Counted from the first letter of the stretch, positions 22,010 to 24,688 are shown. The stretch: 64,000 bases of DNA from an uncultured Gammaproteobacteria bacterium (GCA_963848305.1 CAWKDC010000001.1:992001-1056000), one strand, 5' to 3'. The notes: generated by a model from the letters alone, not told the origin. A program made the numbers and translations.

Positions 22010-22182
22010 GAGGTTTCCTGTCTGTAGGCCTGGTTCAATTCAGCGGCTGCTTATGATAGCACACCTCCTGCCCAGAATGGAATGAGCCAGTCGCCCATAT
22101 CTTGTAATGAATCGCCCACAATATCTGTACCAAAGCCACAGAAATACAAATGGTTACCCATGGGTCGCCGTCTGACAACGCA

Positions 22183-22530
22183 TTATCCCACGGACCGAAA
22201 AGTGAGCGTCAGCATGAGCGGTGGAACAACCAATAATGGAAACCGTGTGATCAGCATGGCTGTTTTTTGGCTGATGCTCTCGGTGTCTTTCCAAACTGTC
22301 CAATAGCCTTTGATCACAGCACTGTTGGGAGAAGATTGAAACTGACGCCGCATGGCTTCTTTTTTGAGCAATGCTGCATAAGACAACATCGCAACAGCCA
22401 TCGTCATGGGGATGGCTGAGCCCTCTCCGTCCATCCATACCCATGTGGAAAATGACCATAAAACGCTCGAGCTAACGATGATGAAATGATGGGCGCCATC
22501 GCGCGCCCAATCGGGGACGGATTGAAACAT
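22183..22530 (-). CDS. Small hypothetical membrane protein
   Basis: 115-aa ORF with 2-3 hydrophobic segments directly downstream of the HTH gene. Confidence 0.45.
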   Translation of the reverse strand: MFQSVPDWARDGAHHFIIVSSSVLWSFSTWVWMDGEGSAIPMTMAVAMLSYAALLKKEAMRRQFQSSPNSAVIKGYWTVWKDTESISQKTAMLITRFPLLVVPPLMLTLTFRSVG

Positions 22531-22556
22531 AAAGACCTGCCTATTTATTATTTTTG

Positions 22557-22910
22557 TTATGAATGCTTGAGTACAAGCATATCGAGCGGAATATTAAGCC
22601 CTTCCGCAATATTTTTCAAGACATTTTTGCTGCCCGAACGAATATGATGCTCGAGTTGAGATAAATAAGGCACACTGATCTGCGCCACCTTTGCTAAGGC
22701 CGCTTGAGATAACCCTCGATACTCACGCCAAACCCGAATAGGACTTTCCCCTTGTGCAATCCGAGCAGCAAATCGCTCGGGCAACAGTGCAACCGGTGTG
22801 GCTTGCGGCTGTTTGGCCAAGAAGATCAGTTTTAAATATTCACCATAAGGCAGTACAGCCCACTGGGGTTCGCCTGAGGAGGGAATAAATTGCACGTCAT
22901 TTAACGCCAT
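22557..22910 (-). CDS. XRE-family HTH regulator, HigA-like antitoxin fold
   Basis: VQFI...GEPQWAVLPYGEYLKL N-terminus and SPIRVWREYRGLSQ..LA....IS.PYLSQLE HTH_3 domain. Confidence 0.88.
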   Translation of the reverse strand: MALNDVQFIPSSGEPQWAVLPYGEYLKLIFLAKQPQATPVALLPERFAARIAQGESPIRVWREYRGLSQAALAKVAQISVPYLSQLEHHIRSGSKNVLKNIAEGLNIPLDMLVLKHS

Positions 22911-22935
22911 ACCATTCCCGTAGGGAGATTTTCAG

Positions 22936-22966
22936 AAAAAGACCCCCCGCCTTGTGGGAGGGGGGT
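22936..22966 (-). terminator. Intrinsic terminator
   Basis: minus strand acccccc-tcccacaaggc-ggggggt followed by cttttt. Confidence 0.75.
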
Positions 22967-23085
22967 AAGCATGTCAATCTCCACTTGACATTCGTATCGG
23001 CACCAACCGACTTCAGACATGCTGAACCTCAACCATTGCAATAAGTACACTACCAGCCCAAGGTGTGTGGCTTCACTGCTTCACA
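22936..23085 (-). ncRNA. Candidate structured small RNA (about 150 nt, serial hairpins)
   Basis: TTGACA-16-TAATAT promoter, four to five consecutive stem-loops, ends in a GC hairpin plus U-tract. Confidence 0.6.
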
Positions 23086-23089
23086 CATT

Positions 23090-23141
23090 AATATTAGCAT
23101 ACAGCTAATATTTGTCAAGAGGTATTAGCATATTGCTAATA
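23090..23141 (-). promoter_or_regulatory. Sigma70 promoter with two palindromic operators TATTAGC-N5-GCTAATA
   Basis: aatattagc-ataca-gctaatatt (23090-23112) and tattagc-atatt-gctaata (23123-23141) flank TTGACA (23118-23113). Confidence 0.75.
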
Positions 23142-23200
23142 TACACAAATTGCGGGAAATGCGGTATTGTGGGGGCGATTCAACATGGACGAGGACTGAC

Positions 23201-24688
23201 ATGACCTACCTACCGCTTTTCGACAAAGACTGTCGGTTTTTTCTTGCGATCACCAGCTTCATCCTCACGGTGCTATTAGGGTGGGATGCGGTCATCAATA
23301 AGGACGCGGTGTTGTACCTCACGCAAGCGTGGTTGATCGGCGAAGGTGACTGGGTTCGTGCCGCAAGTGTGTACCCATGGCCGGGTTACTCTGCCCTGAT
23401 TGCCTGTATTCAAGCACTGGGTCCCTCGCTCGAGCATGCAGCTGTTTTGATCAATGCCAGTTTTTATGCCCTGCTCGTGGCTGGATTTGTCAGCGTGATC
23501 AAACAAATGGGCGGAAACAATGCCATTCAATGGTTAGCCGGCATTACAGTGCTGATTTATCCGATCATCAATGGATACCGAGAGAGTATTATTCGGGATG
23601 TGGGCCTGTGGGGCATGATGTTCTGGGGCATTTATGCATTGGTGCGTTTTCATGAGAAACGCCAATGGCGTGATGTATGTTTGTGGGCCCTCACCATGGG
23701 CATTGCGTTTATGTTTCGCGTCGAAGCAATCGTCTTGATTGGTCTCGCTCCTTTTGGATTATTGCTGATCAAACCACGACGCTCTGTTTGGGACATGCTC
23801 CATTTTCAATCTGTATTTCTAGTCGCGATGTTTTCAGCGCTGATCTTCATCATGATAACAGGCAAGGTAGCTTGGTTGAGCCGTCTGCATGAATTGCCGC
23901 AATATCTCGTCATGCTGAGGGATGTCGGCGATGATTATATGAATCGCGCACATCAAATAACCACGGTATTTTCGTCGGAACTCGAACGTAAATATGGTGC
24001 CATCGCATTATTCGGCGCAAGCTTGGCGATCATCGTTTTTATTTGGGTTAAAGTGGTGACACCTTTTTATCTAGCGCTAGCAGGCTTGGCCGTTTCTCAA
24101 CACCTGATGGGTGATTCACTGGCAAAACGCTATATCCTGATGTTCATTGGCATCAGCGCAACCATTGTCATCATGTTCTTCCTAAAACGTTATTTTTTGA
24201 CCAGCCGTTACCTCGTCATGCTGAGCTTATTATGCATCACGCCTGTTCCCTTTGCCATTCATGCAATTGCCAATGCCCGCGGCAACGGCACATGGATGGG
24301 AAAACAATTTGTCTTCCCACTGATGGTACTGATACTCGTTGGCATGGCCATATCTGGTGTGATCCAACTCGGTGATAAAAAAATATATTTGCGTGATGCA
24401 GGAGAATGGGTGCATCAGCATGTCAGACCGGATACACAAATCTATATCAGCGATACACGGGTCGCTTATTATGCAAAGCGTTTTGATGTGCTGTTGAAAA
24501 AGCCTAAAATTTCCCTAGACGAGGCGATAAAAGGGGGATTCACAACGGAAAAGATTGTGGTTGTGTATCATGATGATCGCACGTCGAATGTGAATGCTTA
24601 TCTCGCTCAATTGGATGATCGGTATGAACAAATCCCATTTAATGATTCAACAGGCCGGGGCGTGATGGTGGTGATCAAGAAGCAATGA
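23201..24688 (+). CDS. Polytopic membrane protein, possible GT-C glycosyltransferase (LPS modification)
   Basis: about 12 TM segments, IN.D..LYL motif in first loop, RD motif, LPS gene context; GAGGA RBS. Confidence 0.6.
   Translation: MTYLPLFDKDCRFFLAITSFILTVLLGWDAVINKDAVLYLTQAWLIGEGDWVRAASVYPWPGYSALIACIQALGPSLEHAAVLINASFYALLVAGFVSVIKQMGGNNAIQWLAGITVLIYPIINGYRESIIRDVGLWGMMFWGIYALVRFHEKRQWRDVCLWALTMGIAFMFRVEAIVLIGLAPFGLLLIKPRRSVWDMLHFQSVFLVAMFSALIFIMITGKVAWLSRLHELPQYLVMLRDVGDDYMNRAHQITTVFSSELERKYGAIALFGASLAIIVFIWVKVVTPFYLALAGLAVSQHLMGDSLAKRYILMFIGISATIVIMFFLKRYFLTSRYLVMLSLLCITPVPFAIHAIANARGNGTWMGKQFVFPLMVLILVGMAISGVIQLGDKKIYLRDAGEWVHQHVRPDTQIYISDTRVAYYAKRFDVLLKKPKISLDEAIKGGFTTEKIVVVYHDDRTSNVNAYLAQLDDRYEQIPFNDSTGRGVMVVIKKQ

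Follow-up and report, generated by a model that had tools for sequence, protein, structure and literature searches.

The region 22557-23141 of a 64,000-nt stretch of DNA from an uncultured Gammaproteobacteria bacterium (GCA_963848305.1, CAWKDC010000001.1:992001-1056000; this whole stretch is called the window, and its coordinates are used below) carries a compact module, in which the gene of a helix-turn-helix (HTH) protein of the XRE/HTH_3 type is preceded by a conserved non-coding stretch at the place where relatives of this gene have a toxin gene. The explanation favoured here is a toxin-antitoxin operon whose toxin gene was replaced by a selected, repressor-controlled, terminator-ended RNA that acts in trans, with the HTH protein produced by read-through. 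As a whole this explanation is tentative, with a probability of about 45%, and its parts differ in strength: the build of the module, its joint occurrence with HTH, selection on the non-coding stretch, and the lack of a toxin are shown, while repression by HTH, termination with read-through, action in trans, and descent from the toxin gene are inferred.

Organization of the Module

All parts of the module are read on the minus strand, and their order from 5′ to 3′ is operator 1, the −35 box, operator 2 together with the −10 box, about 150 nt in which no reading frame is conserved, a terminator, and the HTH gene. Operator 1 (ATTAGCAATATGCTAAT, 23124-23140) is situated upstream of the −35 box and operator 2 (ATTAGCTGTATGCTAAT, 23093-23109) overlaps the −10 box, both being 17-bp palindromes of the form ATTAGC-N5-GCTAAT. 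This form occurs twice in the 1.89-Mb assembly, both times at this locus; thus, the genome has no other exact site for the HTH protein, and the module looks self-contained. The sigma-70-type promoter revealed by promoter scan (23091-23118) consists of TTGACA (23118-23113) and TAATAT (23096-23091) with a 16-nt spacer and TG before the −10 box; it has 10 of 12 hexamer matches, and the region contains 5 promoter-like sites compared with 2.5 ± 1.6 in shuffled sequences. Both hexamers, as well as TTAGCA..GCTAAT of operator 1, are unchanged in all five orthologous loci, and the palindromic operators at the promoter are conserved, unique in the genome, and common to the toxin-bearing relatives. The HTH protein is predicted to bind both palindromes and to repress the promoter. 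A second, upstream promoter using TAATAC within operator 1 was considered and rejected, its last T not being kept in other genomes.

The predicted non-coding RNA extends for about 152 nt from the putative transcription start to the end of the U tract (22933-23084, both ends being predictions) and may represent a stand-alone small RNA (sRNA) and/or a terminated 5′ leader of the HTH messenger RNA (mRNA). Its own promoter and intrinsic terminator bound this short non-coding unit at the sequence level. The 5′ conserved block GUGAAGCAGUGAAGC..CCUUGGGCUGGUAGUG (23048-23086), defined by alignment of orthologues, is followed by a central hairpin GUCGGU-UGGU-GCCGAU (22996-23011) and by the block UGGAGAUUGACA (22972-22983), which is identical in six of six sequences and which in the window's genus makes up the loop and the 3′ arm of the hairpin AUGUCAA-GUGGAGA-UUGACAU (22991-22971). 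Further stem-loops (gtgtg..cacac, CCUUGG..UUGAGG, and ttcag-catgt-ctgaa) can be drawn in the stretch. The intrinsic terminator (22933-22962), recognized by terminator scan and by comparison with orthologues, is CCCCCCUCC-CACAA-GGCGGGGGG followed by UCUUUUUCU, with the stem at 22962-22943 and the U tract reaching to about 22933, and all six sequences have a GC-rich hairpin and a U tract at this place. Between the end of the terminator and the HTH start codon (ATG, 22910) there are 23 nt, and the spacer present on read-through transcripts (22911-22932) includes AAUCUCC and a likely ribosome-binding site GGGAA. Hence every feature named in the original prediction, i.e., the twin-operator TTGACA-16-TAATAT promoter, the stem-loops, and the GC terminator before an XRE/HTH gene, is present in the sequence.

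The scan of Rfam 15 suggested in that prediction (cmscan, E up to 10) returned for the region two chance-level eukaryotic families only and matched no described RNA family, aptamer, or leader, and the putative RNA is accordingly a family absent from Rfam. ARAGORN gave no transfer RNA or transfer-messenger RNA genes in 22400-23400, and a nhmmer search with the RNA alignment showed that the unit is single-copy in the genome. Two smaller candidates within the unit were tried and rejected. One was a leader peptide in the window's genus (GGAG, 7 nt, then AUG-CUU-AAC-CCC-CCU-CCG-stop running into the terminator arm), for which the second genus possessing the module has no AUG, so that it was dismissed as a mechanism common to both genera; the other was a binding site of CsrA at the GGA of the hairpin loop, for which the second genus has no second GGA at the ribosome-binding site.

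The last part of the module (22557-22910) is the gene for a 117-aa XRE/HTH_3 protein (Pfam HTH_3, E 2e-8), an orphan homologue of antitoxins, which is composed of a conserved N-terminal segment (DVQFIPSSGEPQWAVLPYGEY), a variable linker, and the C-terminal HTH domain. Between the two genera the N-terminal segment is identical at 16-18 of 24-25 residues, the HTH domain at 34-40 of 56, and the linker at 7-9 of 27. The N-terminal segment is therefore kept although there is no toxin, which indicates that the former toxin-binding end is still under some constraint. Solved structures match the HTH part only in sequence search, and no solved HigA matched the protein by sequence, so that “HigA-like” is to be taken as a label rather than as tested membership. 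The homodimer prediction scored 0.15 against a mark of 0.42 and is counted neither way.

The Toxin Slot

Relatives of the HTH protein were collected by protein search (105 found), and the 21 closest were aligned for a scan of metagenome contigs, from which the best 80 of 308 coding stretches were kept; the numbers of metagenome loci given here rest on these. The toxin-family profile was built from 49 distinct open reading frames (ORFs) located upstream of HTH in the metagenome loci. This profile has a match directly upstream of HTH in 68 of the 69 metagenome loci whose upstream DNA is 270 nt or longer. In an evenly drawn sample of 401 genomes of the class it has such a match in 12 of 13 loci, or in 11 of 12 when the locus of the genome G050, which is flagged as unpublished, is omitted. 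The upstream gene encodes a RelE/ParE toxin of about 85 aa, and example ORFs correspond to Pfam ParE_toxin (E 2e-12 to 4e-9) and NCBIfam RelE/StbE. A ParE_toxin ORF likewise precedes a paralogue of HTH within the same genome family (G004, L011). Both sets of loci thus bear out the earlier statement that members of this HTH family are usually preceded by a RelE/HigB-type toxin gene.

In the toxin-bearing loci the start codon of the toxin lies a few bases after ATTAGC-N5-GCTAATAT, with the same arrangement of operator and −10 box as in the module (L154, L158, and L167). The second part of the earlier statement, that the toxin gene is missing here, also agrees with the data: in the window genome, which is 92% complete, neither Pfam PF05016, nor the L011 toxin, nor the family profile found a toxin anywhere (best E 1.3). 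As judged from sequence, the non-coding stretch occupies exactly the toxin slot of a toxin-antitoxin operon. Among the compared loci toxin-bearing members have HTH identities of up to about 52%, and the RNA-bearing second genus has 55–59%, so that the boundary between the two forms falls between these values.

The only exception among the 69 metagenome loci, L165, has a different ORF before HTH, which is 150 aa long (1017-1469) and looks PIN-like by eye. In L162 (around 590-660) only the last 15 or so codons of the toxin precede HTH, i.e., the toxin is truncated. Together these two loci indicate that in the HTH family the toxin was lost or exchanged more than once.

Conservation and Selection

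The 240 nt upstream of HTH were matched in 5 of 61 related genomes, which are all three genomes of the window's genus and both of the second genus. Within the order an HTH orthologue was found in 5 of 12 genomes, which are the same five, and the seven genomes without HTH had no match to the upstream region either. A sixth copy of the module is located on the metagenome contig L132, the end of which truncates it. Close relatives of HTH in the sample of 401 genomes of the class were confined to the window's genus, and the nhmmer search with the RNA alignment over all compared loci returned these six loci only.

Common to all copies are the palindromes, both hexamers of the promoter, a 5′ block with GCArUGAAGC and CCUUGGrCUrGUAGUG, the block UGGAGAUUGACA, and the GC hairpin with its U tract, while the second genus has about 70 extra nucleotides in the middle of the stretch and, as a result, a predicted RNA of about 225 nt. 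Conservation of the stretch beside HTH orthologues, whose upstream regions the original prediction proposed to align, is therefore found in two genera (five genomes and L132), and it includes the twin operators and the terminator. The 16-mer CCTTGGNCTNGTAGTG was in addition seen in at least 120 loci of genome contigs; among the matches listed none has the neighbouring motifs, and these are chance matches.

Within the genus the non-coding stretch is 85–87% identical, compared with 68–74% for the HTH gene and 38–45% for its four-fold degenerate sites. Between the genera the four-fold sites have fallen to 17–32%, which equals random, whereas blocks of the stretch persist: pieces of 10–16 nt, including GCArTGAAGC and CCTTGGrCTrGTAGTG of the 5′ block, are invariant or changed purine for purine, at a distance where the HTH proteins are 53–59% identical. 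A stretch more conserved than the gene next to it and than the four-fold sites of this gene is not a neutrally decaying pseudogene, and selection at the nucleotide level acts on it. The region is also non-coding: single-base insertions and deletions shift the frames between orthologues, so that no reading frame is conserved, and toxin profiles are not significant in the stretch. It follows that the idea of a decayed toxin gene, put forward earlier as a refuting outcome, fails as far as neutral decay is concerned, while its other half, origin from a toxin, may be partly right.

This origin is hinted at by a nhmmer match of 19 nt. Positions 158-176 of the DNA profile of the toxin gene (the codons ..RLRVGDW..) correspond in the two long RNAs, both from the second genus, to positions 159-177 and 152-170, with E 0.016 and 0.02 in a 1,068-nt search and at the same distance from the promoter. 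The match lands on the invariant block TGGAGATTGA, where the TGG reads TGA. Protein-profile search for a toxin remnant in the stretch was not significant. It is a reasonable inference that the RNA was derived from the toxin gene.

Genomic Neighbourhood

In four genomes and on L132 the module stands beside hldE. The divergent neighbour is a gene of a PMT_2-type glycosyltransferase in four of five genomes, and in the window it adjoins hldE and rfaD, which are heptose genes. The genes on both sides are different in G006, with a divergent ATPase gene in place of the glycosyltransferase gene, and the module is intact, which argues that the RNA, and not a neighbouring gene, is the constant partner of HTH. 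Short repeats (GTAGCGCAAT..) flank the G006 module upstream (L004 1620-1720), and these repeats together with the divergent ATPase gene suggest that the cassette moved or that the locus was rearranged. In G002 (L002 1632-1935) there are about 300 bp between the operators and the glycosyltransferase gene, holding two copies of a repeat of about 40 nt (..CTTAGGCCCCCTTTGG.AAAAG.GGCAGCCGAGTA..) that looks like a small repetitive extragenic element.

The ORF listed for the divergent glycosyltransferase in the window (23150-24688, plus strand) begins with TTG at 23150 and would overlap operator 1; the starts of the orthologues (MTHLTFF.. and MGMTHLPMF..) suggest that the true start is ATG at 23201. 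On the plus strand operator 1 ends in TGCTAATAT, a possible extended −10 box for this gene, and the HTH protein may consequently repress the glycosyltransferase gene too. In a third genus of the family the glycosyltransferase homologue has different neighbours, and comparison with an empty site was uninformative.

Downstream of HTH (22035-22530, minus strand) there are a 115-aa ORF (22183-22530) without Pfam family and a 47-aa ORF (22035-22178). The latter resembles the C-terminus of a 213-aa membrane protein encoded after HTH in G001 (35% identity, E 2e-6). The gene of this membrane protein may be split or frameshifted in the window genome, and it is absent after HTH in G002, L132, and the second genus.

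RNA Folding and Covariation

The window copy folds with a minimum free energy of −54.4 kcal/mol (z = −2.0), and 7 of 200 shuffled sequences fold as well, so the value is modestly unusual, while for the two longer orthologues of the second genus (z = −5.3 and −3.7) none of 200 shuffles each did so. The central hairpin is the helix with compensatory changes. In four sequences two of its six pairs are changed on both sides, 95.7% of the cells are paired, and 19 of 500 shuffles reach this score; in addition to GUCGGU/GCCGAU of the window it occurs elsewhere as GUCGGA/UCCGAC, GCCGGC/GCCGGC, and UCGGG/CCCGA, and in a related strain its closing G·U (place 23011) is replaced by A-U. These data suggest that the central hairpin is under selection at the RNA level. 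This hairpin is the only one of the seven helices proposed that has compensatory changes, and the whole fold does not exceed shuffles, hence a conserved multi-hairpin fold of the stretch is not established.

Proposed Mechanism and Alternative Explanations

The following course of events is proposed. The HTH protein, a former antitoxin, would keep the promoter shut by binding the two palindromes, which lie on either side of the −35 box and of which one overlaps the −10 box. When the promoter fires, most transcripts would end at the intrinsic terminator and yield a species of about 150 nt, or of some 225 nt in the second genus, while the few read-through transcripts would carry the HTH message and close a negative feedback loop. 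Read-through would be the simplest route of HTH expression, since no space or signal for a promoter of its own was seen before HTH in the genus of the window. What the module delivers would then be the RNA and not a protein, most likely a regulatory RNA acting in trans, whose functional sites may be the conserved 5′ block and UGGAGAUUGACA, with Hfq available as a helper; the RNA probably evolved at this very site, out of the toxin gene or the transcript of that gene. This course of events is favoured by four observations, which are the lack of any other exact operator, the integrity of the module under changed neighbours, the seed-like blocks, and the presence of Hfq. Conserved blocks of primary sequence are typical of seeds, and among RNA chaperone genes Hfq (E 3e-30) and CsrA were found in the genome, while ProQ was not.

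As for transcription, 22 sequencing runs were found by search and four were compared with the locus. A run labelled as metatranscriptome gave one contig of 205 nt that covers 22929-23107 at a depth of about 10 with 10 differences, and the loose end of this contig reaches as far as the start codon of HTH. In another run all 751 nt are covered by a single DNA contig with about 94% identity. The body of HTH and the start of the glycosyltransferase gene had no cover in the RNA-library run, which is not interpretable. These data are a weak hint that the unit is transcribed, some read-through included.

Several results weigh against the proposed trans-acting RNA. The 205-nt contig begins 23 nt upstream of the predicted +1, and such contigs show neither ends, strand, nor level, while RNA libraries may hold DNA. 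In the search for targets, duplexes of the three conserved blocks with 1,771 crudely defined start regions were no better than those of shuffled blocks, and folding of full-length duplexes gave nothing meaningful. Two perfect genome matches were rejected as targets, being sense-strand or promoter DNA and probably due to chance: one of 18 nt at G000 C1:831344-831361 (E 0.003) is sense-strand coding DNA of a 179-aa ORF, and one of 17 nt at C1:1274682-1274698 (E 0.014) belongs to the promoter region preceding rpmE and is complementary to the terminator's 5′ arm. With respect to structure, the seven proposed helices in four sequences have 87.3% of cells paired compared with 86.7% in shuffles, 175 of 500 of which reach the score, and in the whole set one pair only is changed on both sides; pairing of the whole structure is no better than in shuffles because most pairs never vary. 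Moreover, the folds of the two genera are not superimposable beyond the shared blocks and the terminator. The known copies of the module amount to six sequences from two genera only. The origin from a toxin is drawn from one 19-nt match, and frameshift-tolerant alignment with the toxin was not significant, scores this high being reached by 7 of 60 and 5 of 60 shuffles. Finally, a terminator standing immediately in front of the gene to be regulated is classical for cis-acting leaders and not for independent sRNA genes.

Such a purely cis-acting leader (attenuator) is the main rival of the trans-acting RNA. In this case termination and/or masking of the ribosome-binding site would set the HTH level, and the real target of the HTH protein would be the divergent glycosyltransferase gene; it is a possible explanation, on balance an unlikely one. 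The closeness of the terminator to the HTH start and the lack of room for a separate promoter fit it well, as do the possible −10 box TGCTAATAT and the divergent neighbour in four of five genomes, but in G006 another gene is divergent and the module is unaffected. Also in keeping with a leader is the sequence GGAGAUU of the invariant block, which in the window's genus is complementary to AAUCUCC of the spacer, past the terminator and near the likely ribosome-binding site; the motif AUCU(C/U)C recurs in each of the four sequences from this genus and in the loose end of the related strain, but not in the second genus. The same limit applies to the competing helices. Within the window's genus AGCAUGUC, AUGUCAA, and UUGACAUGCU can form mutually exclusive helices, none of which clearly disrupts the terminator, and in the second genus AAAGGGG has two alternative candidates for pairing, the terminator's 5′ arm and UCCCCUUU behind the terminator; no competing helix is common to both genera, and no antiterminator pairing is evident by eye. 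Furthermore, no signal or ligand can be named, and invariant blocks of 10–16 nt exceed the needs of a simple terminator leader. The suggestion of an attenuator or riboswitch-like leader made in the original prediction is therefore supported by the position of the terminator directly upstream of HTH, but not by any aptamer match in Rfam or by a visible antiterminator.

The RNA could instead have replaced the toxin as the partner of the antitoxin, either as a co-regulator or decoy bound to the N-terminal segment of HTH or as a harmful RNA that is checked by HTH; this is improbable. RNA and HTH always co-occur, and the N-terminal segment is as conserved between genera as the HTH domain though no toxin is present. 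In the AlphaFold monomer model residues 1-20 are predicted to lack secondary structure and have low confidence (pLDDT 50–63), as might be expected for folding induced by a partner. However, this segment may serve dimerization or DNA binding, no solved structure covers it, and XRE/HTH_3 antitoxins are not known to bind RNA. An equally improbable combination is a hybrid cassette, in which the RNA would be both the effector and the ligand of the N-terminal toxin-binding segment, so that repression would be set by the ratio of RNA to protein, by likeness to the toxin-to-antitoxin ratio of classical systems.

It is somewhat less probable still that the blocks work at the level of DNA as further protein-binding sites or promoter-proximal signals and that no functional RNA is involved. 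Most of the conserved positions never vary and so are silent on RNA pairing, and the invariant block contains a perfect TTGACA; this internal hexamer has, however, no −10 box at 16–18 nt, the blocks are unlike operator half-sites and reach about +110 from the predicted start, the compensatory changes of the central hairpin make sense only in RNA, and a terminator closes the unit in all six copies. Lastly, a decaying toxin pseudogene or a small protein gene without RNA function, to which the position in the toxin slot, the LRVGD followed by stop that is readable at the colinear place in the second genus, and a 49-aa frame overlapping the stretch in the window might point, is the least probable explanation of all, because conservation of the stretch exceeds that of the neighbouring protein gene and by far that of four-fold sites, every orthologue has its frames interrupted in a different way, nothing corresponds to the C-terminal half of the toxin, and the 49-aa frame has no Pfam family.

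If the trans-acting RNA is confirmed, the module would be a clear natural case of a regulatory RNA born inside a toxin-antitoxin operon and inheriting the old control circuit: the toxin gone, the antitoxin turned into an ordinary repressor, and the slot yielding an RNA. The replacement of a toxin gene by a conserved RNA in two genera may thereby show how a new regulatory RNA arises, and it bears on how new bacterial sRNAs arise and get wired into regulation as well as on what many genomic “orphan antitoxins” do. As a simple and self-contained module (two operators, promoter, RNA, terminator, and repressor gene), it could be moved into a laboratory host for direct testing.

Comparison with Known Systems

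The type II RelE/ParE operons with an XRE-HTH antitoxin and the toxin gene first, as in HigBA, resemble the module in the homologous antitoxin, the operator overlapping the −10 box, and the order of effector and then HTH. They differ from it in that here there is no toxin ORF at the locus or in the genome, there is a second operator, and a terminator stands between the first unit and the HTH gene. Toxin-antitoxin types with an RNA component are also known, namely, types I and III with RNA antitoxins and type VIII with RNA toxins, and these share with the module the two-part cassette with one part being RNA. Unlike them, the module has no toxin protein to counter and no antisense partner, and its protein would be a DNA-binding repressor. 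No repeat array like that of type III was noted on reading the sequence, in which no repeat-finder search was made.

Another comparison is with RNAs derived from 5′ untranslated regions (5′-UTRs), of which SreA and SreB of Listeria are trans-acting examples derived from riboswitches. RNAs of this kind that are made by premature termination and also act in trans are described from 3′-end mapping in E. coli (PMC7815308). The order of promoter, leader, intrinsic terminator, and gene is as in the module, and there too the terminated product may have its own function; in contrast, the leader here would be inherited from a gene or replace it, and no ligand, aptamer, or target was found for it. Orphan antitoxins are common according to the passages of PMC12654330, where they are thought to act as regulators, a role suggested in general terms. 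The retention of an HTH antitoxin homologue without a cognate toxin is the common feature, while the module has a conserved RNA in the toxin slot, and none is described in those passages. Among the papers listed by full-text search, no title or opening part of an abstract describes an RNA that takes the toxin slot in an antitoxin operon.

The nearest precedent by analogy seems to be OxyS of Enterobacteriaceae. As stated in the abstract of PMC8825220, OxyS arose from a fragment of a peroxidase mRNA, replaced that gene, and stayed under the control of OxyR. The derivation from the parental gene is only hinted at for the module, for which neither a target nor an inducing signal was found; the parental gene here would be the toxin of a toxin-antitoxin pair, and the regulator is encoded downstream, on the same transcript and behind the terminator, whereas OxyR is divergent. 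In both systems, as far as that abstract describes OxyS, a non-coding unit would stand in the place of a former protein gene and keep the operator, promoter, and regulator of its parent.

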